59,779 nt of DNA from Patescibacteria group bacterium (lineage in GTDB: Bacteria > Patescibacteriota > Patescibacteriia > Magasanikbacterales > GWA2-37-8): the NCBI GenBank assembly GCA_028705565.1, contig JAQWDH010000006.1, forward strand, positions 1-59,779. Direction: 5' to 3'. The position numbers and the translations under genes are program-made. Below are positions 29,917 through 47,349 of this stretch, piece after piece. Within the stretch, counting starts at the first letter, position 1; the number at the start of each line of letters is the position of its first letter. The notes beneath the pieces were generated by a model, which was given only the letters and a program-made list of their open reading frames with translations, did not search any database and had not been told where the DNA came from.

Positions 29917-30666
29917 ATGAGAATTTTTCAAGGATTGTATAAAATTAAAGAAGATTTTAAATGGTTATTCGGTTATCCGATTGTGGATTTTTTTACTGAT
30001 TCGTGTGTTAATTATGATAAGTATTGGGAGAAAAGAGGTCGTAACAGTCGTCCTTTTTTGTCAAAATGGCAGAAAAAAAGAGCTGTCTTTGTTTTAAAAT
30101 CAATTGAAAAAGGTTCCACAGTATTGGATTTAGGATGCGGAGACGGCATCCTTTTAAAATATCTTCAAGAAAAGGCAGAAATTAAAGGATGTGGCGTGGA
30201 TTCAAGCGATAAGATTTTAAACCAGGCAAAATCCATAGGAGTTTTCACTATAAAAATGGATATTATTGATATAGACAATATAAAATCACTATCAATATTT
30301 GATTATATAACATGTTTTGAAATTATTGAACATTTGTCTTGCCCAGAAATTTTGCTGAATTGCTTAAAAGGAAAAGTGCGCAAAGCTATTTTTTTTTCCA
30401 TTCCAAATACAGGATATTATGCGCATCGTTTAAGATTACTATTCGGCAAATTTCCATTACAGTGGGCCGGGCATCCGGGCGAACATTTGCGTTTTTGGAC
30501 GCTATCAGATATAAAATGGTGGGTAAAATCATTAGGTTTTAATATTGAAAGTTTGGAATTATACGAAGGATTTCCCATATTAAATAAAATATTTCCGTCA
30601 TTATTTGCGCAAGGTATATTACTAAAAATAGTTGATAACAATAAAGTGAAAAATAATGCGAAATAA
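29917..30666 (+). CDS. Class I SAM-dependent methyltransferase, MetW-like
   Basis: VLDLGCGDGILLKYL motif I, FDYITCFEIIEHL, and GEHLRFWTLSDIKWW resembling the MetW family. The ATG at 29917 is preferred; the track start at 29887 is a TTG inside the upstream gene. Confidence 0.75.
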   Translation: MRIFQGLYKIKEDFKWLFGYPIVDFFTDSCVNYDKYWEKRGRNSRPFLSKWQKKRAVFVLKSIEKGSTVLDLGCGDGILLKYLQEKAEIKGCGVDSSDKILNQAKSIGVFTIKMDIIDIDNIKSLSIFDYITCFEIIEHLSCPEILLNCLKGKVRKAIFFSIPNTGYYAHRLRLLFGKFPLQWAGHPGEHLRFWTLSDIKWWVKSLGFNIESLELYEGFPILNKIFPSLFAQGILLKIVDNNKVKNNAK

Positions 30667-30670
30667 AATT

Positions 30671-32095
30671 ATGAGAGTTTTTTTGGTTTTACTGAAAATT
30701 AATTCTAATTGCCAGTGGCATGTTGGATTGTCTTATATTTCCGCCGTGCTTAAAAAAGGAGGGCACGACGTGGAACTGTTTGAACTTGAAAATTTTCATG
30801 AACAAAATCATTTTTTGTTGGAAAGAATAAAAGAATTCCGTCCAGGAGTAATTGGCATATCCTCCAATTCTCATCAGTTTAAATATGTTGATATTTTGGC
30901 AAAAGAGATTAAAGATTGCGTGTCAGTTCCGATATTTTTAGGTGGAGTTCATACAACTTTGAACCCGGAAAATATTAAGGAACTGAAATATGTGGATGGT
31001 GTTTGTATCGGAGAGGGAGAAGAAGCATTTTTGGAATTGGTAAATGCCATAAATAATAAACGAAATTTAACGGATATAAAAAATTTTTGGATAAAACACG
31101 GAGGTGAAGTTATAAAAAACACCAGCCGTCCTTTAATTGAAAATTTGAATTTTTTACCATTTCCCGATCGTTCAATTTTTAATTATTTTAAAGAGAAAAA
31201 AACTAAAAAAGTACCGCGTTTTATTTTTTCCCGCGGGTGCCCTTTTGACTGCGCTTATTGTTGTAACCACGCGATAAAAAAAGTTTATAAAGATTTAGGA
31301 AAATATGTTAGATTCAGGACTGTTAATATGGCCATCGCTGAAATTGAAGCGGAGCTGCAAAAATATAATTTTTCTCATTTTAAATTAGACGACGATACCT
31401 TTTCTTTAAATAAAAGTTGGTTAAAAGAATTTTGTAATACAATTGCGATCAAAAATTGGAATTTAACTTTTGAATGCAATGTTCGTCCTGGCACAATTGA
31501 CGCGGAAGCGATGAATGCTTTAAAAAAAGGCGGATGTACTTTGGTAAAAATTGGTATAGAAACCGGGAATGAAGCATTAAGAAAAGAAGTGCTGAACAGA
31601 AAATTTTCAAATCAAGATATAATTAAAACATTCAAAATAGCTAAAGAAAATGGCATAAAAACCTTTTCTTTTAATATGATTGGCATACCTGGTGAAAATC
31701 GTACGACAATTAAAGAAACCATTGATTTAAACGCAAAAATAAAGCCGGATTTTATGCAGGTAACCATTTTTTATCCTTATCGTGGAACTGTTTTGGGGGA
31801 TGAGTGTTTTCGGAAAGGGTATGTGGAAAGATTCTCTGAAGATTCGTATATGGAAAAATCTTCTTTAAAATTACCAGGTATTTCAAGACACCTGATAGAA
31901 AAGTCTGCTAAAAATTTTAAGTTTAAAGTATATTGGCATTATGACAAAAAAAAAGCGTTAAAAGAAGCTATTTTAATAGTAAAAATGTTTATTTTGTCTA
32001 ATTTTGTACTTTGTTTTGTTTTTAAAAAAGCCCGTATTTTGGTTAAAAACATTAAAAAAATTAGGTTGACTTTAATCAGAAAAATGATAAAATAG
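30671..32095 (+). CDS. B12-binding-domain radical SAM protein (paralog F)
   Basis: FLGGVHTTLNPE, CIGEGEEAFLELV, SRGCPFDCAYCCNH (CX3CX2C), GIPGEN. An alternative ATG at 30656 overlaps the upstream gene by 11 nt. Confidence 0.85.
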   Translation: MRVFLVLLKINSNCQWHVGLSYISAVLKKGGHDVELFELENFHEQNHFLLERIKEFRPGVIGISSNSHQFKYVDILAKEIKDCVSVPIFLGGVHTTLNPENIKELKYVDGVCIGEGEEAFLELVNAINNKRNLTDIKNFWIKHGGEVIKNTSRPLIENLNFLPFPDRSIFNYFKEKKTKKVPRFIFSRGCPFDCAYCCNHAIKKVYKDLGKYVRFRTVNMAIAEIEAELQKYNFSHFKLDDDTFSLNKSWLKEFCNTIAIKNWNLTFECNVRPGTIDAEAMNALKKGGCTLVKIGIETGNEALRKEVLNRKFSNQDIIKTFKIAKENGIKTFSFNMIGIPGENRTTIKETIDLNAKIKPDFMQVTIFYPYRGTVLGDECFRKGYVERFSEDSYMEKSSLKLPGISRHLIEKSAKNFKFKVYWHYDKKKALKEAILIVKMFILSNFVLCFVFKKARILVKNIKKIRLTLIRKMIK

Positions 32096-32120: not shown

Positions 32121-32897
32121 ATGAATATTATTGCTATTATCCCCGCTAGAATGGGTTCTACCCGTTTTCCGGGTAAACCGCTGGCTAAAATTAATGGTAT
32201 CCCAATGGTCGGTCATGTTTATTTTAGGAGCAAAATGAGCAAGATTCTTTCTGATGTTTATGTGGCTACTTGTGACAAAGTAATTGCGGATTATGTAGCT
32301 TCAATCGGTGGCAAGGTAATTATGACAAAGAATGCGCACAAGCGAGCTAGCGACAGGGTTGCGGAAGCTGCGCAAAAAATAGAGCAGGAAACCAAAAAAA
32401 AAGCAGATATTATTGTTATGGTTCAAGGAGATGAGCCGATGATCGTGCCGGAAATGATTAATGCCTCGCTTCGTCCATTGATAAAAGACCCGTCTTTGCG
32501 AGTGGTTAATTTAATGAGTAAAATTCATAATGTAGAAAACCATAATGACCGCAATGAAATAAAAGTTGTTGTTGATAAAGAAAATAATGCTTTATATTTT
32601 TCTCGAGAGGCGATTCCAACTCGTTGTAAAAACTGCAATAAAATTACAATGTATAAACAAGTTTGTGTCATTCCTTTTCGTAGAAATTTTTTGTTTGAGT
32701 TCAGCGCTCTCAAACCGACACCGTTGGAGATAGCAGAGTCAATAGATATGTTGCGTGTGTTGGAGCATGGACAAAAAGTCCGTATGGTTCTATCACCGGT
32801 AGAAAATACATTTAGCGTTGATACGAGTGAAGATTTATTAGAAGTGGAAAAATTAATGAAAAATGATCCGCTCATTGTTAAGTACAAAAAATATTAA
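32121..32897 (+). CDS. kdsB: 3-deoxy-manno-octulosonate cytidylyltransferase (KdsB) family enzyme
   Basis: MNIIAIIPARMGSTRFPGKPLAKINGIPMVGHV..., VQGDEPMI, ALYFSREAIP and ...IDMLRVLEHGQKV... are colinear with E. coli KdsB motifs (IIPARYASTRLPGKPL, VQGDEPMI, ALYFSR, LEQLRVL). The actual substrate is unknown. Confidence 0.75.
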   Translation: MNIIAIIPARMGSTRFPGKPLAKINGIPMVGHVYFRSKMSKILSDVYVATCDKVIADYVASIGGKVIMTKNAHKRASDRVAEAAQKIEQETKKKADIIVMVQGDEPMIVPEMINASLRPLIKDPSLRVVNLMSKIHNVENHNDRNEIKVVVDKENNALYFSREAIPTRCKNCNKITMYKQVCVIPFRRNFLFEFSALKPTPLEIAESIDMLRVLEHGQKVRMVLSPVENTFSVDTSEDLLEVEKLMKNDPLIVKYKKY

Positions 32898-32924
32898 AAA
32901 ATTAAATTAAGGCAAAATTATTTT

Positions 32925-34811
32925 ATGCCTGAAATAAGTATAATTATTCGGACATTTAATGAAGAGAAACACTTGCCAGTTCTTTTAGAAGCGCTATCAA
33001 AGCAAACTTTTAGAAATTTTGAAATAATTTTGGTTGATTCCGGTTCCACCGACAAAACACTTTTAATTGCTCAAGATAAGTGTAAAAAAATTATACGGAT
33101 TCATAGCCGTGATTTTACTTTTGGTTATTCTTTAAATGTCGGGTGTCGTAACAGTTTGGGAAAATATTTTGTTATTATTTCCGCCCACGCTTTTCCATCA
33201 AATAATAAATGGCTGGAAAATTTAACAGCGCCATTTATTGATGAGAGTGTGGTAATGACTTATGGCAGGCATATAGGAGCGGAACAAAATAAGTTTTCTG
33301 AAAAAAGAGATTTTAAAAAATATTTTTGTTCATCGGAAAAAAATTTGCACCCATTCTCTTTTTTTGCAAATAATGCGAATTCAGCAATAAAGCGTTCTGT
33401 TTGGGAAAAACATCCATTTGATGAGTGTCTGACCGGCTTAGAAGATATTGCTTGGGCAAAAAAAACACAAGATTTAAATTTAATAACAAAATACGTTCCG
33501 GAAGCAGTTGTTTATCATATTCACGAAGAATCGTGGGATAAAATTTATAATCGTTATCGTCGTGAAGCGATTGCTGCCCGCCACATCGGTTTACCACACC
33601 CGCCGCTAGCTTCCCCAAGTTTTAAAAAATTTATTACTTATATATGCGGAGATATTTTTGATGACTTAAATAATTTTAACCGAAATCGTTTAAAAGAAAT
33701 ATTTTTATTTCGTTTTTACCAATGGATTGGCACTCGTCATGGCTGGTTTCATAATAAAAATAATCGCAGTTTTACCTTAAAAGACAGAGATAGCCTATAT
33801 TTTTCCGGCGCGAATAATGGAGTTGTTGTTTTAGATAAAAATTGCGCGCAATGGAAAGAAATTGCAATGCCCGAGGTTAAACCAGGCGATGTTTTGGTAA
33901 AAGTAGCTTATGTAGGAGTTTGTCAGACCGATTTGGAAATTTATAAAGGCGAACTCGGCTATTATAAACATGGGATAGCTAAATACCCAATTATTCCCGG
34001 TCATGAATTTTCAGGTGAAGTTGTTAAAGTTGGCGCAAATAATCAAAAGACTTTTAAAATTGGCGATAAGGTTGTAGGCGAATGCGTTATTTCTTGCGGA
34101 AATTGTTCGTTTTGTAGAAAAGGGAATCGCGTTGCTTGCGTTGAAAGAAAAGAAATCGGAGTAATGAATCATGACGGAGCTTATTCAAAGTTTATTGTTT
34201 TGCCGGCACATTTTTTACATCACATCCCGGAAGAGTTGGATTTAAAAGTCGCTTGTTTAGCCGAACCTTTAGCAGTAGTGTTACGTGCCGTTAGAAGAGT
34301 AGAACACAGAATAAAATTTGCGAGTCGGTGCGCTGTTGTTGGCGCTGGACCGATTGGCAATTTTTGCGCGCAAATTTTAAGCGCGCTTGGTCATACAGTA
34401 AAAGTTTACGATAGAAATGAATCAAGGCTTAAATTTTTTAAAAAAAATATTATAACCAGTAGCGCTACATTGGAAGATTGCGCAGATTATGATTTAATTA
34501 TTGAGGCGAGCGGAAATTTAGATGCTTTGAGCCGTGTTTTAACAAAAAGTCAAGCAGGTTCCACAGTCCTTTTATTAGGTTTTCCTTACGGTAAATTAAA
34601 ATATAATTTTGAGGATGTCGTCGGTAAAGAAAAAACAATAATAGGTTCAGTTGGTGGTTCTAATGAAGATTTTGTAAAAGCTTTGCAGATTTTGTCAACC
34701 TTAGATACTGTTAATTTTTTAAAAGCAGTAGTCCCTATTAAAGAGTTTTTGTATGCTTGGAAGTTGCATTCATCTAAAGAGTATTTAAAAGTTATATTAT
34801 CTGTTGGTTAA
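32925..34811 (+). CDS. Fusion protein: GT2-type glycosyltransferase domain + zinc-type medium-chain alcohol/polyol dehydrogenase domain
   Basis: N-terminus ISIIIRTFNEEKHLPVLLEALSKQTFRNFEIILVDSGSTDKT (GT2). C-terminus ...GDVLVKVAYVGVCQTDLEIYKG...PIIPGHEFSGEVVKVG..., structural-zinc Cys cluster CGNCSFCRKGNRVAC, and VVGAGPIGNF Rossmann motif. Confidence 0.8.
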   Translation: MPEISIIIRTFNEEKHLPVLLEALSKQTFRNFEIILVDSGSTDKTLLIAQDKCKKIIRIHSRDFTFGYSLNVGCRNSLGKYFVIISAHAFPSNNKWLENLTAPFIDESVVMTYGRHIGAEQNKFSEKRDFKKYFCSSEKNLHPFSFFANNANSAIKRSVWEKHPFDECLTGLEDIAWAKKTQDLNLITKYVPEAVVYHIHEESWDKIYNRYRREAIAARHIGLPHPPLASPSFKKFITYICGDIFDDLNNFNRNRLKEIFLFRFYQWIGTRHGWFHNKNNRSFTLKDRDSLYFSGANNGVVVLDKNCAQWKEIAMPEVKPGDVLVKVAYVGVCQTDLEIYKGELGYYKHGIAKYPIIPGHEFSGEVVKVGANNQKTFKIGDKVVGECVISCGNCSFCRKGNRVACVERKEIGVMNHDGAYSKFIVLPAHFLHHIPEELDLKVACLAEPLAVVLRAVRRVEHRIKFASRCAVVGAGPIGNFCAQILSALGHTVKVYDRNESRLKFFKKNIITSSATLEDCADYDLIIEASGNLDALSRVLTKSQAGSTVLLLGFPYGKLKYNFEDVVGKEKTIIGSVGGSNEDFVKALQILSTLDTVNFLKAVVPIKEFLYAWKLHSSKEYLKVILSVG

Positions 34812-34825
34812 GTTGATTAAAAAGT

Positions 34826-35464
34826 ATGGAGAAGCGATTTATAGACGTTACATTGCCAATTGATAAAGGCATGCCGATTTGGCCTGATAGCACAGGGATT
34901 AATTTTAGTTGGACACATTGTTTGAACAAAGGAGGAATGGTTAATTTGACGCGATTAGACATGGATGTTCATGCCGGTACTCATGTGGAGGGACCTTTAC
35001 ATTATTATGCTAATGCGATTTCGGTTGATGAAATTCCTTTGGAAATTTTTTTAGGAAGAGCTTTGGTCGTTGATTTACCGGCGGTAGATAAAATAACGGC
35101 AAATGATTTAGAAAAATTGAGTTTACCAAAAGGTATTAAACGTTTGCTTTTTCGGACAAAAAATTCCGAACTCTGGAAAGATTTTAAACAATCATTTTAT
35201 GAAGATTTTGTCGGTCTTTCTTCTAGCGCCGCGCAATGGGTAGTTGACAAAAAAATAAAATTAATCGGAATTGATTATTTATCTGTAGCGAATTTTAAGC
35301 AAGGAAGATCGGTGCATAAGATATTGTTGAATGGAGGCGTGGTTGTTTTAGAGGGTTTAAATTTGCTAATGGCTCCAGCCGGTGAATACGAAATTATCTG
35401 TCTTCCTGTCAAGTTAATCGGCAGAGAAGCGTCCCCGGCTCGTGTAATTTTAAAAAAATTATGA
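34826..35464 (+). CDS. Putative cyclase / arylformamidase-family metal hydrolase
   Basis: The motif ...MDVHAGTHVEGPLHY... matches the HxGTHxDxPxH-type signature of the cyclase (kynurenine formamidase-like) family. Size is 212 aa. Confidence 0.65.
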   Translation: MEKRFIDVTLPIDKGMPIWPDSTGINFSWTHCLNKGGMVNLTRLDMDVHAGTHVEGPLHYYANAISVDEIPLEIFLGRALVVDLPAVDKITANDLEKLSLPKGIKRLLFRTKNSELWKDFKQSFYEDFVGLSSSAAQWVVDKKIKLIGIDYLSVANFKQGRSVHKILLNGGVVVLEGLNLLMAPAGEYEIICLPVKLIGREASPARVILKKL

Positions 35465-36414
35465 GTATTAAAAAATGGAAAATTTTAGTATCCGCTCCAT
35501 ATTTTCAATTGGTACTGGACAAATACCGCGATTTTTTTGATGAACACGAAATTAAGTTGATAGTGCCACCGGTCAACGAAAGGATGTCAGAAGAAGAATT
35601 ACTGAAATACATTTGCGACATTGATGGCGTAATTTGCGGTGACGACCGTTTTAGCGCTCGTGTGATAGACGCAGCTACGAAATTAAAAGTTATATCAAAG
35701 TGGGGAACTGGCATTGATTCTATTGATATAGTGGCTGCTAAAAAAAAAGGTATAGCAGTAAAGAACACGCCAAACGCCTTTACTAAACCAGTAGCCGATA
35801 CAGCCATGGCTTTTATTTTATCTTTTGCCAGGCAGATACCGTGGATTGACAAAGAAATGAAAGATGGAAAGTGGAAAAAAATTTGTACAAATTCTTTAAG
35901 TGAAAGAGTATTGGGTGTTATAGGCGTTGGTAAAATCGGGCAGGCCGTAGCTCGTTGCGGTAAGGCATTTGGAATGCGAATTATAGGAAATGATACCAAT
36001 GAAGTATCAACTGATTTTCTTCGTGAAACAGGGATGATGTTGTTGTCTCTTAATGAATTGGTTTCGCAAGCTGATTATATTACTATACACTGTGATTTGA
36101 ATCCAACAAGTTTTCATTTAATCGGCGCGCCGCAGTTTGCTCTAATGAGCAACACTTCTTATGTTATTAATACGGCGCGCGGTCCGATAATAGATGAATC
36201 AGCTTTAATTCAAGCGCTAAATGAAAAAAAAATTGCAGGGGCTGGGTTAGATGTGTTTGAAAAAGAACCTTTACCGGTGGATTCTCCCTTATTAACGTTT
36301 CCTAATGTTCTTTTGACGCCGCACAATGCTAATTCCAGCCCGGCGGCTTGGCAAAAAGTACACGAGAATACAATAAAAAACTTGCTTGAAGAACTGCAAA
36401 AGTATGATAAATAA
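35461..36414 (+). CDS. D-isomer-specific 2-hydroxyacid dehydrogenase (PGDH/glycerate dehydrogenase-like)
   Basis: VLGVIGVGKIGQAVA NAD motif, and ...INTARGPIIDESALIQALNEKKIAGAGLDVFEKEPLP...LLTPHNA catalytic region. ATGA overlap with the upstream gene. Confidence 0.85.
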   Translation: MSIKKWKILVSAPYFQLVLDKYRDFFDEHEIKLIVPPVNERMSEEELLKYICDIDGVICGDDRFSARVIDAATKLKVISKWGTGIDSIDIVAAKKKGIAVKNTPNAFTKPVADTAMAFILSFARQIPWIDKEMKDGKWKKICTNSLSERVLGVIGVGKIGQAVARCGKAFGMRIIGNDTNEVSTDFLRETGMMLLSLNELVSQADYITIHCDLNPTSFHLIGAPQFALMSNTSYVINTARGPIIDESALIQALNEKKIAGAGLDVFEKEPLPVDSPLLTFPNVLLTPHNANSSPAAWQKVHENTIKNLLEELQKYDK

Positions 36415-36415
36415 T

Positions 36416-38044
36416 ATGAACCGGCGCATATCAATTGAATCTCAAGAGGATGGTGTCATTAAAATATTTAATGAAGAAGGAAAAATGTTGGAAAAATTTT
36501 TTGTAAAAGAAAACTTACAAAGAGCATTAGATTTATTAAAAAAAATAAACGGTTTGAAGACAAAAAAAGGGGTTCCTATTTATGAAATGAGAAAATTTAA
36601 AGGAAAATCAGTTTGGGCTTTTCAACAACATAATATTTTTTGGAATTATTTGAGAAATTATGTAATGTATGAACCGATAATAAAATTTTTACACAGTTTG
36701 AGTTTTAATAGTGTGAAAATTTCGGAAAATTTAAGAGAATTGGAAAAAATACTTAAAATTAACGGTTTGATAGTGGTAAATAGTAAAGAAGCGGATGGTA
36801 TTCGTAAAATTAAGATATTGTTAAAAATATTTTTAGCTAAAATTTTTTCTATAACGATAACTTTAATAGCATTTTTAAAATTATTTTTTAGTCGCTCCGG
36901 CACGTTGGTTTATACACCGGATAAATATTCTAAACATGATTGCGATTTTAGATTTGCCCCTGTTTATGATTATTTAAGAAAAAATAAAATTGATTTTATT
37001 GAAGTGTTACATACGCTTCTCGGCGGAGAATTTTATAAAAATTTTTTTAAAAGAAAGAGACCGGTTATTTATCTAGAAGCTTTAACTAATAGTTTTTTTT
37101 TAAATAAAAAAAATAATATTATTGATATTGATTTTGTTTCCATTGAACAATACAATGTTCCATATATAACGCGCCTTTTGTCTGAAATTGATAAAACGTC
37201 GCAAACAAGCATAAGGTTAATAAAAATTATAAGCTTATTTTTTAAATTAACTAAAATTAAAAGATTGGTTGCAATTGATGATGTTAGGTTTACTAACGAG
37301 CTTGTGATGGCGTGCGGATTAAATAATATAAAGACATATGCTTTTCAGCATGGACATTTTACAAAATACCATGTTGGTTGGATGAATTATGGAATACCGC
37401 AAGAGCTGTCCGTGACTTTTGATAAACTATTTGTCTGGAATGATTATTGGAAAAATATTTTATTTGATTACAGCTCTCAGTATAATGAAAAAAATGTTAG
37501 TGTCGGCGGGTGTTTGCGGAAACTGCCGAACATTTTGTATGAAAAAAGTTGCGCAAAAATTACGAACATTTCCCAAGTAAGCATCCTTCTGCCTTTTGAG
37601 GGAATGGTTGGACGAACCGGTACTATGATGGAAATTAAAAATTTTATTATAAAATTTTTAAATTTGAATGTAAAAATTTTTTTTAAAACAAGACCGGATT
37701 CTGATGTTAAAGAACAACTAAGCAATTACGGGTTAAACGATAATAACAGAGTTGAAATAGTCAGCGAAATAAACAAAGAAGTCCTTTTTAAAATAGACGC
37801 TGTCGTTGGATTATATAGTACTTTTTTAAACGAGATGATTTTTTATGATAAACCGATATTTTTAATGAAGACATCTTTTGATTTAGGGCACAGATTAACA
37901 GATGATGGGCTAGTCACACCTTTGGAAGAATGCTTTAACCCAAAAGTTATTGTTGACGGAATCAATAATTTTAGCTCAAAAAAGAAAATTGTTTGGACCG
38001 AAACAATAAATATTGAGCAGACATTGAATAAAATATTTTTTTAA
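36416..38044 (+). CDS. Uncharacterised 542-aa protein, possible GT-B-like transferase
   Basis: I recognised no confident family. The C-terminal half (...AFQHGHFTKYHVGW..., ...KIFFKTRPDSD..., ...AVVGLYSTFLNEMIFYDKPIFLM) has the layout of capsule/teichoic-type GT-B transferases. An alternative ATG at 36404 is possible; the track start at 36386 is a TTG. Confidence 0.3.
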   Translation: MNRRISIESQEDGVIKIFNEEGKMLEKFFVKENLQRALDLLKKINGLKTKKGVPIYEMRKFKGKSVWAFQQHNIFWNYLRNYVMYEPIIKFLHSLSFNSVKISENLRELEKILKINGLIVVNSKEADGIRKIKILLKIFLAKIFSITITLIAFLKLFFSRSGTLVYTPDKYSKHDCDFRFAPVYDYLRKNKIDFIEVLHTLLGGEFYKNFFKRKRPVIYLEALTNSFFLNKKNNIIDIDFVSIEQYNVPYITRLLSEIDKTSQTSIRLIKIISLFFKLTKIKRLVAIDDVRFTNELVMACGLNNIKTYAFQHGHFTKYHVGWMNYGIPQELSVTFDKLFVWNDYWKNILFDYSSQYNEKNVSVGGCLRKLPNILYEKSCAKITNISQVSILLPFEGMVGRTGTMMEIKNFIIKFLNLNVKIFFKTRPDSDVKEQLSNYGLNDNNRVEIVSEINKEVLFKIDAVVGLYSTFLNEMIFYDKPIFLMKTSFDLGHRLTDDGLVTPLEECFNPKVIVDGINNFSSKKKIVWTETINIEQTLNKIFF

Positions 38045-38071
38045 ATTTATCCGAGTAATAATTATTTTTTT

Positions 38072-39865
38072 ATGTTATTAAATTACAAAAAAATCATTAG
38101 TTTATATCACTTGTTCAAAAAAGGGTACGGTAAGCATAAAACAAGAATAGCCGTAATGATTTTTTTGAGTTTTATCGGGTCGGTTATGGAGGGGGTTGGT
38201 CTCACTATGATTATCCCTCTTTTATCTTTTGTTAGCAAAGAAGGGTCTTCTAATCAAGGAGAAATATACACTACGCTTTCAAAAGCCTTTTCTTTTTTTG
38301 GAATAAATTTTTCAATTAAAAATTTATTGTTTGTAATTTGTGTTTTGTTTTTAGTTAAGGCAGTAGTACAATTTTGTTCCGGATATGTTAACACGCGTAT
38401 TATAACTAGTTTTGAATTAGACAATAAAAAAGAATTGTTTAAAATGACCATGGAATCAAACTGGCTATATTTGTCTAAACAAAAATTAGGTCATTTAGTT
38501 CAAAATATTACAACTGATGTAGATTATAGTTCGCGACTGTTTAGCCTCATAAGCGGCGTGTCAATAATGATTATCAATTTGTGTGTTTATACTTTTTTAA
38601 TTTTTAGTATTTCAATCCCAGTTTCTTTGTTATTGATTGTTTTAATGATTTTTATTTTCTTTTTTCTCAAACCATTATTTTATAAAAGTAGAATGCTATC
38701 GGCTAAATTAAGTTTATGGTATAAAGAATTGTCTCATTTTGTAAATCAGGTGGTTTTAGGAATGAAATCAATTAAAGCGATGTCGGTTGAAAAAAAGATT
38801 ATAAAAGAAGCGGATCGTTATTTTGATGATTATAGAAACTTAACTTTTAAAATAGCATTGTTTGATAATTTAATGAATTCAATAACACAGCCCATAGGCA
38901 TGCTATTCGTGTTAGCAATTTTTGTTTTTCTGTACAAGTTTGTTGGATTTGATTATGGCTCTTTTACGGTCATAATTTATGCTATTTATAAAGTTTTTAC
39001 TTATTTACAAAATACTCAAGTTCAAATTCAAAGAATGAATACATTTTCTCCTTATTTGGTTAATTTATTAAAATATAAGGAACACACGAGTGTTTTTTTT
39101 GAAAAGAATGAAGGAAAAAAACGATTTAATTTTAAGAATGCTTTAAAATTTCAAGATGTTAAGTTTTCTTACGGTGAAGATAAAATTGTTTTAAACGGGA
39201 TTAATATTATTTTTCGTAAAGGAGAAGTTACTGGTATTTTTGGCCCCTCAGGGTCTGGAAAAACCACGGTGGCGGATTTAATTTTGCGCCTTTACAACCA
39301 AAGCTGCGGGCATATATTATTGGATGAAGAAAATATCGCCGATATTGATATGGAAACATGGAGGAATAATATCGGTTATGTTTCACAGGACTTCTTTTTA
39401 ATAAATGATACAATAGAAAATAATATTAAATTTTATAGAGACGATATTACTCACGATGATATTATAGAAGCGGCAAAGATGTCTAATATTTATGATTTTA
39501 TTGAAGGATTGCCTGATAAATTCGCTACTGTAATAGGAGAAAGAGGGGTTTTGCTTTCCAACGGCCAAAGGCAAAGAATTGTTTTGGCAAGAATTTTATC
39601 TAAAAAGCCAGATATTTTAATACTAGATGAAGCCACAAGCTCTTTGGATAATGAAACCGAAATTTTTATTCAAAAAGCGATTGAGAATTTAAAGGGCAGA
39701 GTAACCATCATAGTAATAGCGCATAGATTGACCACATTGGATAATGCTGATACAATTTACGCGATAAACGAGGGTGTTGTTATTGAGAGTGGAAAACCGA
39801 AAGAGCTTTTAGCAAACAAGGACTCTTATTTCTGTAAAGTTTATAATTTAAAAGGTGTATTATAA
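38072..39865 (+). CDS. ABC exporter, fused permease + ATPase half-transporter (MsbA/PglK-like)
   Basis: The N-terminus has six TM helices. The C-terminus carries Walker A GPSGSGKTT, signature LSNGQRQR and Walker B ILILDEATSSLD. Confidence 0.9.
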   Translation: MLLNYKKIISLYHLFKKGYGKHKTRIAVMIFLSFIGSVMEGVGLTMIIPLLSFVSKEGSSNQGEIYTTLSKAFSFFGINFSIKNLLFVICVLFLVKAVVQFCSGYVNTRIITSFELDNKKELFKMTMESNWLYLSKQKLGHLVQNITTDVDYSSRLFSLISGVSIMIINLCVYTFLIFSISIPVSLLLIVLMIFIFFFLKPLFYKSRMLSAKLSLWYKELSHFVNQVVLGMKSIKAMSVEKKIIKEADRYFDDYRNLTFKIALFDNLMNSITQPIGMLFVLAIFVFLYKFVGFDYGSFTVIIYAIYKVFTYLQNTQVQIQRMNTFSPYLVNLLKYKEHTSVFFEKNEGKKRFNFKNALKFQDVKFSYGEDKIVLNGINIIFRKGEVTGIFGPSGSGKTTVADLILRLYNQSCGHILLDEENIADIDMETWRNNIGYVSQDFFLINDTIENNIKFYRDDITHDDIIEAAKMSNIYDFIEGLPDKFATVIGERGVLLSNGQRQRIVLARILSKKPDILILDEATSSLDNETEIFIQKAIENLKGRVTIIVIAHRLTTLDNADTIYAINEGVVIESGKPKELLANKDSYFCKVYNLKGVL

Positions 39866-39868
39866 TTT

Positions 39869-41308
39869 ATGCGTGTAATGTTAATGGAGTGGGCAAATTC
39901 ACTTCCCGAGTTGGTAGATGTGGCGAGTAAATTAAAAGAAAATGGCCATCAAATTTTGTATTGGGTAAGGAACGACTCTCATTTTAAAGTGGATGAATCA
40001 GCTTTTTTCGGTACGATATTTCATAGTCACATAGAAGCCAGAGAGGGAAAGCCGGCTATTGGATTAAAATTAACCGATTTTGAACCATTGGGATCGGATA
40101 TTATCTTCAATTTTTTTAATGCGGAGTCGGTTTTTATGTCTAATGTGGAGAGATATTATCCAAAAAAAGGGGCACAAGAAAAAAAACAATTATTTTATGA
40201 TCTGCTTAGATATTGGTATGGGTTAACGGTCAAGCTTAAACCAGACGTGGCTATTTTTGAAGAAATTCCACACCACTTACATTCGCACGTTGCCTATTCG
40301 GTGTTAAAATTTTTCAACATAAAAATAATTATTTTAAATTCTATAGGTTTGAATAACAGATTACTCATTACATCGGATATTAAATTTAACAGCCAAAAAC
40401 TTCGGTTAAGAATGAAAGAAAATTCTGACAAAGATTTTAATTTGGGAGATCTTTCCCCAGAGATAAAAATAAATATTGATAATGGGACTAACTATACAAA
40501 ATTGCCAGTTCAAACGATAGCTTTATATAATGAGCAAAAAATAAAAAATAAAAATAACAATAATGTCCTTGTCGCTAAATTGATTTTTTGGTTAAAAATA
40601 TTTATCAGTTTTCGTATATTTAGAATTACTTATAATTTTGTAAAAAATCGAATAGGCGGCAACGCCAAAAAAGAATACCTGAAAGCGCAAAAATTACCAG
40701 ATTTTAATTTAAAATATATTTATGTGCCATTGCATTATCAACCAGAGGCGTCTACGAATATTCTTGGTGGAATGTTTGTAAATCAGATTAATCTTATAGA
40801 AATTCTCTCCGCTTCGTTGCCGGAAGGATGGAATATTTATGTTAAAGAACATCCAATACAGTTTTATGTTAATGGAATTGGGTATAATTCATATAGGTTC
40901 AAAGGATTTTATAATAGAATTTCCAATATAAAAGGAGTGAAAATTATTCCTATGGATACTGATACATTCAAATTAATTGAAGAATGCAAGGCGGTAGCCA
41001 CTGTTACTGGCACTGCTGCTTGGGAATCCGTTCTTCGATTAAAACCGGCTTTGATATTTGGCGATAATTGGTTTCAAGATTGTCCGGGGATATTCAAAGT
41101 AAACAATGTGGAAAAATGCAAGGCGGCATTGAATTTTATTAAAAACGGAAGTTTTAAGACAACGAAGCAGGATATAATTCGTTTTTTATTTTCTGTTGAA
41201 GAAGCAACCATATTTGGAAATTTTTCTTTTATTAAATCAGAAGATACGGTGGATTCCGCAACGAATGTGGATAATATTTATAAATCAATTATTGAATCAA
41301 TGAAATAA
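39869..41308 (+). CDS. Uncharacterised 479-aa protein, possible GT-B transferase with sialyl/Kdo-transferase-like HP motif
   Basis: ...YIYVPLHYQPEASTN..., ...NIYVKEHPIQF... (His-Pro at 40850-40855) and ...AVATVTGTAAWESVLRLKPALIFG... resemble the acceptor/donor-half layout of Capsule_synth (KpsC/KpsS)-type and sialyltransferase-type GT-B enzymes. This is recognition by eye only. Confidence 0.35.
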   Translation: MRVMLMEWANSLPELVDVASKLKENGHQILYWVRNDSHFKVDESAFFGTIFHSHIEAREGKPAIGLKLTDFEPLGSDIIFNFFNAESVFMSNVERYYPKKGAQEKKQLFYDLLRYWYGLTVKLKPDVAIFEEIPHHLHSHVAYSVLKFFNIKIIILNSIGLNNRLLITSDIKFNSQKLRLRMKENSDKDFNLGDLSPEIKINIDNGTNYTKLPVQTIALYNEQKIKNKNNNNVLVAKLIFWLKIFISFRIFRITYNFVKNRIGGNAKKEYLKAQKLPDFNLKYIYVPLHYQPEASTNILGGMFVNQINLIEILSASLPEGWNIYVKEHPIQFYVNGIGYNSYRFKGFYNRISNIKGVKIIPMDTDTFKLIEECKAVATVTGTAAWESVLRLKPALIFGDNWFQDCPGIFKVNNVEKCKAALNFIKNGSFKTTKQDIIRFLFSVEEATIFGNFSFIKSEDTVDSATNVDNIYKSIIESMK

Positions 41309-41318: not shown

Positions 41319-42311
41319 ATGTCTTTAGGTTTTTTAAAAGGTTCTTCCATTTTGATCACCGGAGGAACCGGTTCTTTTGGAAAACAATGCATTAAAGCTC
41401 TGCTTCAAAAAACAGAAGCTCGGCGAATAATTATTTTTAGTCGAGATGAATATAAACAGGTAAAAATGACCGCGGAATTTCCTGATACGGAAGGACGGTT
41501 AAGATTTTTTATTGGAGATGTTCGTGATAAAGAAAGACTAGAGAGGGCTTTCAACGATGTTGACTATGTTATACACGCCGCCGCGTTGAAGCATGTTCCG
41601 ATTTTGGAATACAATCCTTTTGAAGCGATAAAAACTAATATTTTAGGATCTAAAAATGTTATTGATGCGGCGATTGACTGTCGCGTTAAGAAAGTTATTT
41701 TAGTTTCTACTGATAAAGCCGCTAACCCGGCAAATTTATATGGCGCGACTAAATTATGCGCCGAGAGACTGATGATTAGCAGTAATGTTTATGGCGCCGA
41801 AAAAACTAAATTCTCCGTAGCTCGTTACGGCAATGTTTTTGGTAGCCGAGGCAGTTTAGTAGAACTAATTAAAAAACAAATGTCTAAAGGAGAGGTTGCT
41901 TTAACTCATGAAGATATGACCAGGTTTTGGATTACTTTAGACCAAGGAGTAAATCTTGTTTTGTCGGTTTTGGAAAAAATGCAGGGAGGAGAAATTTTTG
42001 TTCCTAAAATACCAAGTATGAAGATTAAGGATTTAATTCAAATTTTAGCGCCAGGATGCAAATTAAAAATTATCGGCATTCGACCAGGAGAAAAATTACA
42101 CGAAGTTTTAATAACACAGGAGGAAGCAAGGCACACGAAAGACGCGGATGATTACTACGTTATTTTACCGGAAATTAAAGGGTGGTCTATTAATAGTAGT
42201 TATGCCGAAAATAAAAATTTTTCAGATTTATATTTTAGTAGCGATAAAAATCATTTTTGGCTTGACCGAGAAGCCATAATTAAACTTCTATCCACTGTTT
42301 CTAATGAATAA
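41319..42311 (+). CDS. pseB: UDP-N-acetylglucosamine 4,6-dehydratase (inverting), PseB/FlaA1 type
   Basis: Near-colinear with H. pylori FlaA1: ILITGGTGSFGK, RFFIGDVRD.ERL, IHAAALKHVP..EYNP.E.IKTNI.G, STDKAANP.NLYGATKLC, RYGNV.GSRGS, MTRFWITLD.GV, GGEIFVPKIPSMK, IIGIRPGEKLHEV. Confidence 0.9.
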   Translation: MSLGFLKGSSILITGGTGSFGKQCIKALLQKTEARRIIIFSRDEYKQVKMTAEFPDTEGRLRFFIGDVRDKERLERAFNDVDYVIHAAALKHVPILEYNPFEAIKTNILGSKNVIDAAIDCRVKKVILVSTDKAANPANLYGATKLCAERLMISSNVYGAEKTKFSVARYGNVFGSRGSLVELIKKQMSKGEVALTHEDMTRFWITLDQGVNLVLSVLEKMQGGEIFVPKIPSMKIKDLIQILAPGCKLKIIGIRPGEKLHEVLITQEEARHTKDADDYYVILPEIKGWSINSSYAENKNFSDLYFSSDKNHFWLDREAIIKLLSTVSNE

Positions 42312-42325
42312 TAGTAATTTGAAAT

Positions 42326-43480
42326 ATGAAAAAACCATCCATTATACCTTATGGACACCAAACAATAAGAAATGACGATATAGCAGAGGTGGTAAAAGTA
42401 TTAAAGTCAAACTATTTGACACAGGGTCCAAAAGTCAAAGAATTTGAGCAGAATCTTGCTGATTATTGCGGAAGAAAATATGCGGTAGTTTTTTCTTCTG
42501 GCACAGCGGCTTTGGAGGCGGCTTATTATGCTGCCGGTATTGGCGCTGGAGACGAGATAATAACGACGCCGCTTACTTTTGCCGCAACTTCAAATATGAT
42601 ATTGGCTCGCGGGGCGAAACCTGTTTTTGTTGATATTGATTCTTCCACCGGTAATCTTGACCCGAAAGAGTTTGAAAAGAAAATTAATAAAAAGACAAAA
42701 TCGCTAGTTGTGGTTGATTATGCCGGGATGCCGGCAGATCTAAATTTGTTTAAAGAAATTTGCAACAAAAATAACCTCGTTTTTATTGAGGATTCATCTC
42801 ATGCTCTTGGCGCCTCATTTGAAGGTAAAAAAGTTGGCGCTATTGCAGACATGACTATATTTAGTTTTCATCCAGTTAAATCCATCACCACAGGAGAGGG
42901 AGGAGCGGTTATCACTGGCAAGAAAGATTATTACGAAAGGCTCGTCTTATTTAGAAGCCACGGTATTATTAAAGATAAGAAAAAATTTTTTAGTAAGAGC
43001 CCGGCGGAGTGGTATCACGAAATGCAAGATATTGGATTTAATTTTCGTCTTTCTGATATATGCGCCGCGCTAGGAGTAAGCCAAATGAGAAAACTTGATA
43101 AATTTATCGCAAAAAGAAAGTTGATTGCCAAGCGTTACAAAAAAGAGCTCAGTGGTCTTAAAAATTTTATATTGCCAAAAGATATATCTGGGCGTGAATC
43201 CAGCTGGCACTTATTCGTTTTACGGATTATCCCATTAAAAAAGCATCTTCGTAATTTTGTCTTTACTAAGTTGCAAAACAAAGGAATAGGCGTCCAAGTT
43301 CATTATTTACCGGTTTATTTACACCCATATTATCAAATGTTAGGATATAAAAAGAATCTTTGCCCAAAAGCCGAGTTTTTTGCAGAATCGGAAATTTCTA
43401 TACCTATTTTTCCAACCCTTTCTTTTCGAAATCAGTCTCTTATAATTAAAACATTAAAAGAAATTGATAAAATGTTGTGA
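42326..43480 (+). CDS. pseC: DegT/DnrJ/EryC1-family PLP aminotransferase, PseC-like (UDP-4-amino-4,6-dideoxy-hexose forming)
   Basis: IPYGHQTI..DDI..V..VLKSNYLTQGPKV, IITTPLTFAATSN, DSSHALG, FSFHPVKSITTGEGGAV (PLP lysine), FRSHG, GFNFRLSDI.AALG.SQ. Confidence 0.8.
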   Translation: MKKPSIIPYGHQTIRNDDIAEVVKVLKSNYLTQGPKVKEFEQNLADYCGRKYAVVFSSGTAALEAAYYAAGIGAGDEIITTPLTFAATSNMILARGAKPVFVDIDSSTGNLDPKEFEKKINKKTKSLVVVDYAGMPADLNLFKEICNKNNLVFIEDSSHALGASFEGKKVGAIADMTIFSFHPVKSITTGEGGAVITGKKDYYERLVLFRSHGIIKDKKKFFSKSPAEWYHEMQDIGFNFRLSDICAALGVSQMRKLDKFIAKRKLIAKRYKKELSGLKNFILPKDISGRESSWHLFVLRIIPLKKHLRNFVFTKLQNKGIGVQVHYLPVYLHPYYQMLGYKKNLCPKAEFFAESEISIPIFPTLSFRNQSLIIKTLKEIDKML

Positions 43481-43514
43481 AAATTATTTTTTGAAAAAGA
43501 TAAAAATAATATTT

Positions 43515-44828: not shown

Positions 44829-44875
44829 ACAATAATGTTGTTATGAAAGTAAAATAGTGTGTTTGAGTTAAAAAA

Positions 44876-47289: not shown

Positions 47290-47300
47290 ATTCATGGTAG

Positions 47301-47330
47301 TTTTTTTGCCTTGCATATTTTTTTGCCTTG
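47301..47330 (+). repeat. 13-nt direct repeat TTTTTTTGCCTTG x2 in the intergenic region upstream of the NeuB-family gene
   Basis: 47301-47313 and 47318-47330 are identical on direct reading. Confidence 0.7.
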
Positions 47331-47339: not shown

Positions 47340-47349
47340 AAAGTAATAT

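Follow-up and report, generated by a model that had tools for sequence, protein, structure and literature searches.

What does a KdsB-family cytidylyltransferase do in a Patescibacteria (CPR) genome, where it is encoded in a block of seven genes alongside two dehydrogenases, a hydrolase and an ABC exporter? An earlier note on this DNA had suggested that the block activates a 2-keto-3-deoxy or hydroxy-acid sugar other than Kdo, with the dehydrogenases and the hydrolase as functional partners. All seven ORFs are present on the + strand at the coordinates which that note gave, with intergenic gaps of -4 to 27 nt, an operon-like layout. The block lies within a single-strand glycan locus of about 49 genes, and the closest named proteins, at 99% identity, are labelled "Patescibacteria group bacterium". 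The features discussed below are all in the window, by which we mean the whole stretch of 59,779 nucleotides that was analyzed:

30656..32095, + strand: B12-binding radical SAM enzyme, immediately upstream of the block (PF02310 + PF04055)
32121..32897, + strand: KdsB-family cytidylyltransferase (258 aa; PF02348, CTP_transf_3)
32925..34811, + strand: fusion of a GT2-like domain and a Zn-dehydrogenase (628 aa; Glycos_transf_2 + ADH_N + ADH_zinc_N + Glu_dehyd_C)
32925..33800 (boundary approximate), + strand: GT-A (GT2-like) domain, N-terminal half of the fusion (PF00535, 78 bits)
33816..34811, + strand: Zn-dependent medium-chain dehydrogenase domain, C-terminal half of the fusion (ADH_N, ADH_zinc_N, Glu_dehyd_C)
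34826..35464, + strand: Cyclase-family metal hydrolase (212 aa; PF04199, 90 bits)
35461..36414, + strand: D-2-hydroxyacid dehydrogenase (2-HADH), PGDH-like (317 aa; 2-Hacid_dh_C, 200 bits)
36416..38044, + strand: GT-B fold protein (542 aa from ATG; AlphaFold2 + Foldseek)
38072..39865, + strand: half-size ABC exporter, MsbA/HepA/PglK type (597 aa; ABC_membrane + ABC_tran)
39869..41308, + strand: KpsC/KpsS-like (Capsule_synth) protein (479 aa; PF05159)

Pfam families match the assignments made earlier for the fusion, the cyclase-family hydrolase, the D-2-hydroxyacid dehydrogenase and the exporter. A TTG start upstream of the 542-aa ORF would give 552 aa. A family-profile search of the window's 49 ORFs with a length of 100 aa or more returned no member of the KdsA, KdsC, KdsD or Lpx families, and the absence of the first three that had been reported thus holds among these ORFs. 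Directly downstream of the block, and overlooked previously, are genes for PseB, PseC, a second cytidylyltransferase and NeuB (12.5 kb downstream), which, as judged by sequence, form a separate pseudaminic-acid-like pathway.

Membership of the first enzyme in the KdsB family is clear: it scores 304.5 bits against NF009905 (curated cut-off 255) and 172.7 against TIGR00466 (cut-off 155.2), KpsU and KdsB lead its PDB hits (E about 1e-40), and catalytic residues R10, R15, K19, Q98, D100, R157 and D235 are all retained. The sugar pocket is another matter. The residues conserved in canonical KdsB (S74-G75-T76, H181, Y185 and E210-Q211) are all replaced, with the changes H181Q, Y185I, E210D, Q211M and S74R found in 34-36 of 38 module-linked homologues. 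About 100 of the best 150 library representatives carry the changed signature and 16 the canonical one, so that the replacement marks what appears in the alignments as a discrete clade of the family. In E. coli KdsB, Y185 binds the C5-OH of Kdo (PMC12199768). We predict that the clade comprises CMP-ulosonate synthetases for a non-Kdo acid. The earlier view that Kdo for lipid A is an unlikely substrate is supported by this remodelled pocket, together with the rarity of kdsA near the module (see below). The argument from a missing LPS does not carry the case, because many bacteria that do have LPS carry this module too.

The conserved core, consisting of the KdsB-like enzyme, the 2-HADH and the GT2-like domain, is smaller than the seven-gene block. 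These genes, with the domain fused to the dehydrogenase, are adjacent in CPR, Alphaproteobacteria, Desulfobacterales, Nitrospirota, Elusimicrobia, Acidobacteria and Dehalococcoidia, and relatives of the fusion were found in at least 594 representative species of CPR and LPS-bearing bacteria. A second dehydrogenase accompanies the core in the fused and the Chloroflexi forms. The 2-HADH was matched in 63 of 87 loci, and nearly every fusion locus with sufficient flank has one; the cyclase-family gene is found in 29 of 66 fusion loci and is missing from about half. The partnership of dehydrogenases and hydrolase thus recurs across phyla, and it is the core, in many relatives, rather than the whole 9-kb block, that is conserved as a unit. 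Linkage was counted within flanks of ±10 kb around the module, where a kdsA homologue is present in 1 of about 105 loci and a NeuB homologue in about 12; the scarcity of aldolase genes refers to these flanks, and the NeuB gene of the window lies beyond such a distance.

Gene replacements among the relatives bear on the chemistry. In Chloroflexi, cyanobacteria and two of three Rhodobacterales plasmids the GT2-like domain is unfused and an SDR takes the place of the Zn-dehydrogenase. These SDRs score best against D-xylose 1-dehydrogenase XylB (280 and 274 bits, under the curated cut-off of 400) and glucose 1-dehydrogenase, and share 36-39% identity with the Chloroflexi SDR encoded after the 2-HADH. 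The Thalassovita and Sulfitobacter loci have an SMP-30/gluconolactonase (PF08450, 234 bits) and no annotated cyclase-family gene within ±10 kb. Replacement of the Zn-dehydrogenase by an aldose-dehydrogenase-like SDR, and of the cyclase by a gluconolactonase, suggests oxidation of an aldose. The Thalassovita SDR and SMP-30 genes directly follow kpsF-kdsB-kdsA and so could belong to that operon, and in the Gemmobacter locus no gene for another dehydrogenase or for a lactonase lies within 12 kb.

The Zn-dehydrogenase domain (ADH_N 102.5 bits, ADH_zinc_N 48.8) passes the Pfam threshold for Glu_dehyd_C, the glucose-dehydrogenase C-terminal family (38.2, cut-off 34.9), and its C333, H360 and E361 are invariant. 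It is predicted to be an aldose/sugar dehydrogenase. In the PDB it most closely resembles ketose reductase, threonine dehydrogenase and iditol dehydrogenase, and the nearest characterized relatives are polyol and threonine dehydrogenases rather than aldose 1-dehydrogenases, which counts against aldose oxidation. In the GT2-like domain, an invariant Ser86-Ala87-His88 occupies the place of the DXD motif and aligns with the DSD of GalT1. Fused or free, the domain keeps about 40 residues unchanged from phylum to phylum, including E173-D174, H198, H200, E202 and R210-Y-R-R-E214, a degree of conservation which fits a small-molecule pathway enzyme. Its role is a guess: the Ser-x-His and His-x-His motifs could bind a metal, which would make it an ordinary transferase.

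The Cyclase-family hydrolase reaches 138 bits against the arylformamidase equivalog, under the cut-off of 223, and in the PDB it comes closest to 1r61 and kynurenine formamidases. We predict that it is a lactonase and an accessory member of the module; we know of no cyclase-family lactonase. The 2-HADH best matches P. horikoshii PGDH (1wwk, E 4.5e-61), with a 2-ketogluconate reductase (9m0t) also among its PDB matches. PGDH works in the oxidative direction, and the enzyme is predicted to convert an aldonate to a 2-keto-aldonate.

Our leading explanation, held tentatively and at a little below an even chance, is that the module builds a 2-ulosonic acid without a PEP-dependent aldolase and then CMP-activates it. 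From the families, co-conservation, changed pocket and gene replacements observed, we infer every substrate and reaction of this route, which is best read as running from aldose through lactone, aldonate and 2-keto-aldonate to CMP-ulosonate. The GT2-like domain would act on a nucleotide sugar, most likely freeing the aldose, much as PseG and NeuC release a sugar on the way to nonulosonic acids; of all the steps, this is the one of which we are least sure. The fused Zn-dehydrogenase would oxidize C1 to give an aldonolactone, which the Cyclase-family hydrolase would open, a dispensable step since lactones also hydrolyze spontaneously. The 2-HADH would then oxidize the C2 hydroxyl to yield a pent- or hex-2-ulosonic acid with the 3-OH still in place, and the KdsB-like enzyme with its remodelled pocket would couple the hemiketal hydroxyl to CTP, the release of pyrophosphate pulling the unfavorable oxidation forward. 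A lineage-specific transferase would install the acid (here the 542-aa GT-B protein and perhaps the KpsC-like 479-aa protein; in other lineages U595, a Capsule_synth or a Maf-like protein), and the ABC exporter would carry the product, or a lipid-linked carrier, across the membrane. Of the sugar proposed earlier, the non-Kdo part is thus retained, while the evidence points to a 2-keto-aldonic rather than a 3-deoxy acid. A hexulosonic acid is known in the capsule of E. coli K3 (from a reference given in PMC10433991; bioRxiv 10.1101/2025.01.29.635457).

The partners encoded downstream of the core come from families whose donor substrates are linked to cytidine: Capsule_synth, Maf/MptE-like and GT-B proteins similar to TarL. 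Neither Pfam nor NCBIfam returns a match for the 542-aa protein, in keeping with its earlier description as unknown, which its fold now amends: the AlphaFold2 model (pLDDT 91.4) retrieves the GT-B enzymes NeuC, CalG2, TarL and MurG in Foldseek, and we confidently assign the modelled protein to the GT-B fold. It is homologous to the large post-cassette protein of other CPR loci (hhalign probability 100%, E 7e-47), and is a candidate transferase for the CMP-activated acid. The family, with only 51 homologues found, is restricted to CPR and is no general member of the unit. The 479-aa protein, also called unknown before, matches PF05159 (33 bits, cut-off 20); the best TM-scores of its model (pLDDT 90.1) are 0.44-0.50 to KpsC and 0.40 to WbbB, a K326-E-H-P motif is present, and the position of the QXXXD motif reads Q291-P-E-A-S. 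It resembles a KpsC/KpsS-like CMP-sugar glycosyltransferase, and may equally serve the module or the adjacent pseudaminic-acid-like pathway, as KpsC homologues can transfer Pse too (PMC12887879). Neither it, which tblastn places near the module in just 3 loci, nor the exporter (HepA family 336 bits, MsbA 307 bits, both under cut-offs) is a fixed member as had been supposed; a similar exporter is frequent rather than constant (13 module loci by clustering). The B12-binding radical SAM enzyme, a possible sugar methylase, is a frequent companion, with homologues of up to 56% identity in 14 module loci and a B12-rSAM cluster present in 16.

Alternatively, the module could tailor a pre-formed ulosonic acid, with the two dehydrogenases oxidizing one position, or oxidizing and re-reducing it in an epimerization, and the KdsB-like enzyme re-activating the product. 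We consider this unlikely, though it is the alternative that fares best. The acid would be Kdo in diderms, since most of those with the module make it anyway, or else a NeuB product, for example the Pse-like acid whose genes lie downstream in the window. Several loci, the window included, have two cytidylyltransferases. There is also precedent in EpaA (CTP_transf_3 + aldo-keto reductase) and EpaB (SDR), which convert Pse to 8ePse (PMC12053666). However, a 2-HADH acts at the carboxylate alpha-carbon, which is C2 of an ulosonic acid, and is therefore no side-chain epimerase; the recurrent aldose-dehydrogenase-like SDR, the gluconolactonase and the GT2-like domain would be left without a role, and most loci, most of those from CPR included, have no NeuB or KdsA gene within 10 kb.

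Less probable again is a pathway that begins with a nucleotide-linked uronic acid or with an aldonate already at hand, which would likewise end in a CMP-2-ulosonate using the same enzyme families: for example, the GT2-like domain would free a hexuronate from its NDP form, the Zn-dehydrogenase or SDR would reduce the C1 aldehyde to an aldonate, as in the analogous conversion of D-glucuronate to L-gulonate, and oxidation at the alpha-hydroxyl by the 2-HADH would give a hex-2-ulosonic acid, 2-keto-L-gulonate for instance. Relatives of the dehydrogenase domain do include L-idonate 5-dehydrogenase and RspB-type aldonate dehydrogenases, and a UDP-glucose 6-dehydrogenase gene adjoins the module in locus L007. 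The latter is no regular neighbor, the need for a lactonase is less obvious, and the replacement SDRs (variant B) resemble aldose 1-dehydrogenases rather than uronate reductases.

We find it very unlikely that the enzyme is an ordinary CMP-Kdo synthetase, whose CMP-beta-Kdo would be used by KpsC/KpsS-like transferases to build a capsule or glycan containing Kdo, with the Kdo synthesized by genes at another site in the genome or acquired from a host, as CPR bacteria depend on scavenging, and with unrelated tailoring enzymes as redox neighbors. The KdsB thresholds, the intact catalytic residues and a Capsule_synth gene in the same operon would fit, but the replaced pocket, the rare linkage to kdsA and Capsule_synth, the Pse transfer by KpsC homologues, and a cross-phyla linkage to the 2-HADH and GT2-like domain tighter than unrelated neighbors allow all speak against it. 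Least probable is that no ulosonic acid is made, for example if the GT2-like domain glycosylated (phospho)glycerate in the manner of GpgS, a C3 acid were the substrate of the PGDH-like enzyme, and the compound activated by the cytidylyltransferase were not a keto acid: the 2-HADH is nearest to 3-phosphoglycerate dehydrogenases, the unfused Thalassovita domain weakly matches glucosyl-3-phosphoglycerate synthase N-terminally (42 bits) and CMP-linked species without an alpha-keto acid have been reported from Magnetospirillum gryphiswaldense (bioRxiv 10.64898/2026.04.20.719630), but that match is far under cut-off and generic to GT2 N-termini, M. gryphiswaldense did not turn up among the organisms with a close match to the fusion, and the apparatus for hemiketal OH attack is fully conserved. 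To our knowledge, all characterized CTP_transf_3 enzymes activate 2-ulosonic acids.

We thus return to oxidation of an ordinary sugar as the likeliest source of an unusual keto-sugar acid. We found no described pathway for this gene module in the literature, in agreement with the earlier note, which had recognized none, and the module is widespread. Its route would differ from the usual chemistry of Kdo and sialic acids in that sugar oxidation takes the place of the aldolase.

The seven ORFs between 32121 and 41308 that the earlier note had singled out are all present as it described them, separated by intergenic gaps of -4 to 27 nt.

Genes of the block (window coordinates, strand, assignment)
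32121-32897, +, KdsB-family cytidylyltransferase, over the curated cut-offs NF009905, NF003952 and TIGR00466
32925-34811, +, fusion of GT2 and a Zn-dependent medium-chain dehydrogenase (Pfam; Glu_dehyd_C threshold also passed)
34826-35464, +, cyclase-family hydrolase (Pfam Cyclase; under the arylformamidase equivalog cut-off)
35461-36414, +, D-2-hydroxyacid dehydrogenase, 2-HADH (Pfam/NCBIfam)
36416-38044, +, 542-aa protein without Pfam or NCBIfam match
38072-39865, +, ABC exporter of the MsbA/HepA/PglK type, all equivalog cut-offs missed
39869-41308, +, 479-aa protein, PF05159 Capsule_synth (KpsC/KpsS family), weak yet over threshold

The window has a G+C content of roughly 29-38% and some 49 ORFs of 100 aa or more, all in the same direction. 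It derives from a metagenome (Logan SRR22315502), and proteins 99% identical to its own carry the name "Patescibacteria group bacterium". Its other ORFs encode GT4, GT2 and PMT_2 transferases, methyltransferases, an asparagine synthase, an ABC-2 permease, seven B12-radical SAM enzymes and an O-antigen-ligase-like protein. Family scans of all ORFs in these 59.8 kb found no KdsA, KdsC or KdsD, as the earlier note had stated, and no Lpx families. All gene-like ORFs of at least 100 aa are on the + strand and the GC skew is positive along the whole window, which is consistent with a single, very long super-operon of glycan genes, all co-oriented on the leading strand. The literature returned nothing relevant on KdsB in Patescibacteria/CPR or on this combination of genes, and we found no description of the set, which the earlier note had not recognised as a known pathway. 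The interpretation given to the block, activation, installation and export of an unusual 2-keto-3-deoxy or hydroxy-acid sugar, is partly supported.

The fusion protein has more than 1,600 homologues, of which the majority match over their full length with about 50% identity and many are from CPR, and the gene neighbourhoods of six of them contain the same cassette. A scan of one genome per species placed its relatives in at least 594 species, including CPR groups, Nitrospirota, Desulfobacterales, Elusimicrobia, Verrucomicrobia, Acidobacteria, Dehalococcoidia and Rhodospirillaceae; cultured carriers are the Rhodospirillaceae Paramagnetospirillum marisnigri SP-1 and Magnetospirillum sp. SS-4. 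Searching 87 loci with the window proteins (tblastn) detected the fusion in 66, the 2-HADH in 63, the KdsB-like enzyme in 54 (the remainder being mostly short contigs), the cyclase in 29, the 542-aa protein in 14, all CPR, and the 479-aa protein in 3. By clustering, 13 loci contain an ABC exporter and 16 a B12-radical SAM enzyme; for the radical SAM gene that directly precedes the block, homologues (up to 56% identical) occur in 14. The conserved core, hereafter the module, therefore consists of the KdsB-like enzyme, the 2-HADH and the fusion; the cyclase is accessory and the remaining block genes vary by lineage. It is this core, and not the whole block, that is conserved far beyond CPR. A conserved protein of ~300 aa with no Pfam match lies directly upstream of the KdsB-like or fusion gene in eight CPR-type loci (including L013:657-1562 and L014:7725-8642; one, L003, is labelled Woesearchaeota). 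Clustering put no window ORF in this family, which may be another lineage-specific part of the module.

The KdsB-like enzyme scores over all three family cut-offs (NF009905, 304.5 against 255; NF003952, 273.4 against 193; TIGR00466, 172.7 against 155.2) and is about 35-40% identical to KpsU and KdsB proteins of solved structure. Together with 38 homologues linked to the module, it was aligned to KpsU and to the KdsB of E. coli and of H. influenzae; pocket residues, given in E. coli numbering, were defined from PMC12199768 plus our own alignments. None of the catalytic, CTP-binding and Mg-binding residues R10, R15, K19, Q98, D100, R157 and D235 varies, either in the window protein or in any of the 38 homologues. 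In E. coli KdsB the C5-OH of Kdo is hydrogen-bonded by Q98 and Y185, and H181 lies within the active site (PMC12199768). The canonical Kdo pocket (S74-G75-T76, N96, H181, Y185, E210-Q211) is not kept in the window protein, which reads R-A-S, M, Q, I and D-M at these positions, as do 34-36 of the 38 homologues; the changes across the clade are S74R, G75A, N96M, H181Q, G183C, Y185I/M, G186P, E210D and Q211M. An exhaustive HMMER search returned 1,201 representatives at E <= 1e-30, and among the best 150 of these the Q/I(M)/D/M signature occurs in about 100 and the canonical H/Y/E/Q with S-G-T and N96 in 16, all lower-ranked. On these signatures, module cytidylyltransferases and canonical KdsB form two discrete clades. 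Other variants of the module have different pocket combinations or a PseF-like cytidylyltransferase. As a practical caution, automated "KdsB" calls within the module clade should not be taken as evidence of Kdo or LPS.

The N-terminal domain of the fusion (here GT2*) matches PF00535 at 78 bits (cut-off 23.3) and has an invariant acidic E173-D174 motif. The DXD motif is missing: S86-A87-H88, which aligns to the DSD of GalT1, is invariant in all homologues, fused and unfused. About 40 residues of the domain are invariant across phyla, whether it is fused or free, including D38-S-G-S-x-D43, F-T-F-G, N149-N150, H198, H200, E202 and R210-Y-R-R-E214. Conservation this strong argues that the substrate would be a small molecule rather than varied glycan acceptors. 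We dropped the idea that the missing DXD marks a CMP-sugar donor, as a metal might still be bound by the Ser-x-His together with His198 and His200.

The C-terminal domain of the fusion (ADH_N, 102.5 bits; ADH_zinc_N, 48.8) retains invariant catalytic ligands C333, H360 and E361 and falls under every equivalog cut-off (threonine dehydrogenase, 160 against 380). Equivalog cut-offs are likewise missed by the 2-HADH (PGDH, 234 against 454; GyaR, 210 against 455; GhrB, 179 against 492), whose assignment from these scores is established at superfamily level only; it is closest to PGDH, which works oxidatively in vivo, and its PDB matches include a 2-ketogluconate reductase. The cyclase-family protein (Pfam Cyclase, 90 bits) scores 138.3 for arylformamidase TIGR03035, under the cut-off of 223, and its formamidase motif HxGTHxDxPxH reads H-A-G-T-H-V-E-G-P-L-H, with E in place of D. 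The cyclase family takes in ring-opening hydrolases such as isatin hydrolase, which is a weak PDB match of the window protein.

Variant loci show which of these parts can be exchanged. In Chloroflexi and a cyanobacterium the gene order is unfused GT2*, PseF-like cytidylyltransferase, 2-HADH and an SDR, sometimes with a cyclase, and sulfotransferases, Capsule_synth and PMT_2 proteins are found nearby. Some of these loci add a KDN-like set (NeuB, a cytidylyltransferase-phosphatase fusion and phosphomannose isomerase) that includes its own cytidylyltransferase, so here too the module has a separate one. Searching plasmids by tblastn located unfused GT2* on annotated plasmids of Rhodobacterales, in the cultured carriers Gemmobacter fulvus, Thalassovita gelatinovora and Sulfitobacter sp. 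D7. These encode, in this order, a glycosyltransferase, a member of the acylneuraminate cytidylyltransferase family and a PGDH-like oxidoreductase, followed in two of the three by GalE and flanked by MptE-like (Maf-type, PF01973) proteins. The Thalassovita and Sulfitobacter loci have an additional SDR, with D-xylose 1-dehydrogenase XylB as best NCBIfam match (280 and 274 bits, cut-off 400) and glucose 1-dehydrogenase as the next, that is 36-39% identical to the Chloroflexi SDR following the 2-HADH, and an SMP-30/gluconolactonase that clearly matches PF08450 SGL (234-237 bits). Across lineages, the Zn-dehydrogenase is thus swapped for an aldose-dehydrogenase-like SDR, and the cyclase-family hydrolase is swapped for a bona fide lactonase family or lost.

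Thalassovita plasmid pAge77 (locus L108) also carries, at 801-5766, kpsF, kdsB, kdsA, the XylB-like SDR, the SMP-30 lactonase and a Maf-like protein; this kdsB-kdsA operon is 5 kb from the set of GT2*, cytidylyltransferase, 2-HADH and GalE. On this plasmid, Maf-type transferases seem to be supplied by two different ulosonic-acid routes. The locus is a good experimental system.

The lineage-specific genes of the block encode two large proteins with no pairwise similarity to each other, both of which had been listed as unknown, and the exporter. The 542-aa protein indeed has no Pfam model, but AlphaFold2 predicts a confident GT-B fold (pLDDT 91.4) matching NeuC, GT1 enzymes, MurG and the CDP-ribitol polymerase TarL. 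Its family is small (51 homologues), and the large protein encoded after the cassette elsewhere in CPR is homologous to it; kinship with the proteobacterial protein U595 is doubtful (hhalign probability 24%). The exporter has the ABC_membrane + ABC_tran architecture and falls under the equivalog thresholds for the HepA family (336 against 725), MsbA (307 against 602) and PglK (190 against 1000).

For the 479-aa protein the label "unknown" does not hold, given its match to PF05159. Its AlphaFold2 model (pLDDT 90.1) has its best TM-scores with KpsC (6mgd, 0.50; 6mgc, 0.47) and WbbB (0.40), with UDP-GlcNAc 2-epimerases ranking higher by E-value. Retaining Kdo transferases are defined by (K/R)XHP and QXXXD motifs (PMC12887879). 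The CMP-binding (K/R)XHP motif is present as K326-E327-H328-P329, with K326 invariant and E327 in at least 90% of sequences, while QXXXD is absent: the residues are Q291-P292-E293-A-S295, with Q, P and E invariant and no Asp at +4. The protein has its Pfam family and its CMP-binding motif in common with the group of KpsC/KpsS (GT107), WbbB (GT99) and KrkA (GT140), but it lacks their nucleophile motif and is only 10-14% identical to KpsC. Pseudaminic acid, too, can be transferred by KpsC homologues (PMC12887879), and the gene abuts pseB, so that its donor could be either acid, and may be the pseudaminic-acid-like one encoded next door.

That neighbouring pathway, at 41319-48480 directly downstream of the block, had been passed over previously. 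It comprises PseB (over the equivalog cut-off), a PseC-type aminotransferase, a class-III aminotransferase, an aldo-keto reductase, a second CTP_transf_3 protein fused to DUF218, and a NeuB/PseI-like synthase. As it has its own cytidylyltransferase, the KdsB-like enzyme is a second CMP-transferase in the locus. The aldo-keto reductase beside a cytidylyltransferase recalls EpaA, a fusion of a cytidylyltransferase and a reductase that leads to 8-epi-pseudaminic acid.

Three ORFs without Pfam match, at 48542-49768 (408 aa), 50889-51818 (309 aa) and 51830-52876 (348 aa), lie between NeuB and a methyltransferase/ATP-grasp gene group; the 408-aa protein, homologues of which occur in 4 module loci, could be a PseG-like nucleotidase or a transferase. 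The genes at 52869-53846, 54858-56591, 56625-57380 and 57389-58600 together encode two ATP-grasp ligases, one of the L-amino-acid-ligase type, an acetolactate-synthase-like TPP enzyme and a FabG-like SDR, a group that suggests an unusual N-acyl or amino-acid decoration of the nonulosonic acid. The B12-binding radical SAM genes are at 8285-9772, 11409-12761, 14315-15712, 15745-17214, 25681-27096, 30656-32095 and 58590-59660, with one SPASM radical SAM gene at 18357-19400. B12-binding radical SAM enzymes methylate unactivated carbons. CMP-linked alpha-keto acids with an extended (C10) backbone are described from Magnetospirillum gryphiswaldense (preprint, bioRxiv 10.64898/2026.04.20.719630), and C-methylated or chain-extended sugars may be made in the window locus too. 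M. gryphiswaldense is not among the close carriers of the fusion, and a connection of the module to its novel CMP-sugars is only a lead. An O-antigen-ligase-like (Wzy_C) protein with C-terminal TPR repeats (window 1199-3265, L014:17050-19245, L002:19758-21878) recurs near the module in several CPR loci; a ligase/polymerase of an outer-leaflet type in presumed monoderm CPR cells is interesting by itself.

The most likely reading of the module is a route, so far undescribed, to a keto-sugar acid activated with CMP. We infer its substrates and reaction steps as the simplest chemistry that uses every part. GT2* would release a free aldose from a nucleotide sugar, which is the weakest link; the Zn-dehydrogenase or SDR would oxidize the aldose to an aldonolactone; the lactone would open to the aldonate through the cyclase-family or SMP-30 hydrolase, or spontaneously; the 2-HADH would convert the aldonate to a 2-keto-aldonate; the KdsB-like enzyme would activate this as a CMP-2-ulosonate; and a cytidine-nucleotide-using transferase would put the acid in place. 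A hexulosonic acid is known from the E. coli K3 capsule (Dengler 1988, cited in PMC10433991; bioRxiv 10.1101/2025.01.29.635457). It is possible, although short of probable, that the module makes a nucleotide sugar of a new class, a CMP-pent- or hex-2-ulosonic acid that keeps its 3-hydroxyl and derives not from PEP aldol condensation but from the oxidation of a sugar (aldose, lactone, aldonate, 2-keto-aldonate), with the DXD-less GT-A domain as committed nucleotide-sugar hydrolase and the cyclase-family protein as lactonase, and that hundreds of species, ranging from CPR to Magnetospirillum and roseobacters, bear this sugar on their surfaces or flagella.

It is unlikely that the module instead tailors a pre-formed Kdo or nonulosonic acid and then re-activates it, for which EpaA/EpaB provides an analogue (PMC12053666). 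A kdsA homologue occurs in only 1 of ~105 related loci and a NeuB homologue in about 12; a genome-wide single-protein scan for NeuB co-occurrence returned 3 loci and was uninformative. A uronate as the start of the pathway is rather improbable, the SDRs of the variant loci resembling aldose dehydrogenases. That the cytidylyltransferase is a plain CMP-Kdo synthetase would agree with its family scores and is very improbable with its clade-wide pocket changes. A product other than an ulosonic acid is about as improbable, the enzyme keeping all catalytic residues of KdsB. Phosphonate tailoring was rejected, PEP mutase being absent from the window and the module loci, as was a "CDP/CMP-2-hydroxyacid" formed by direct activation of glycerate or lactate, which is chemically unproductive for transfer.

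To our knowledge, the only acids so far known to occur as CMP-activated sugars are made by PEP aldolases, namely Kdo, KDN and the sialic, pseudaminic and legionaminic acids. If the sugar-oxidation route is true, this second, oxidative route would add a new building block to bacterial glycobiology, would account for the "KdsB" annotation in CPR, Chloroflexi and other organisms that lack LPS, and would assign functions to a widespread GT-A/dehydrogenase fusion and to a cyclase-family hydrolase.

Compared with KdsB and KpsU, the module enzyme shares the CTP_transf_3 family and fold and the catalytic, CTP- and Mg-binding residues, but its sugar pocket has changed across the clade and its genes are linked to a 2-HADH and a DXD-less GT-A domain, not to kdsA, kdsC or kdsD. 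With the Pse, Leg, Neu5Ac and KDN pathways the module would have in common a CMP-activated alpha-keto sugar acid as end product, and those for Pse, Leg and Neu5Ac also free the sugar from a nucleotide (PseG, LegG, NeuC), as we predict here. Maf-like or KpsC-like final transferases are likewise common to the module, nonulosonic-acid pathways and tailoring modules (EpaA/EpaB, Ela/Aci), and EpaA/EpaB is an earlier case of oxidoreductases teamed with their own cytidylyltransferase (PMC12053666). Unlike nonulosonic-acid pathways, the module has no NeuB-type PEP aldolase, its keto group being predicted to come from aldonate oxidation, and its dehydrogenases belong to other families (2-HADH and MDR or SDR) than those of the tailoring modules. 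The MDR/SDR aldose dehydrogenase and SMP-30 lactonase families match those of the De Ley-Doudoroff, Weimberg and non-phosphorylative Entner-Doudoroff pathways, and the 2-HADH family is that of the 2-ketoaldonate reductases (GhrB/TkrA, KguD), which interconvert aldonate and 2-keto-aldonate; in the window, the role of lactonase would fall to the cyclase-family hydrolase. Whereas these upper oxidative sugar pathways are catabolic and continue with a dehydratase, the module genes belong to loci for glycan assembly, where a cytidylyltransferase and glycosyltransferases come next.
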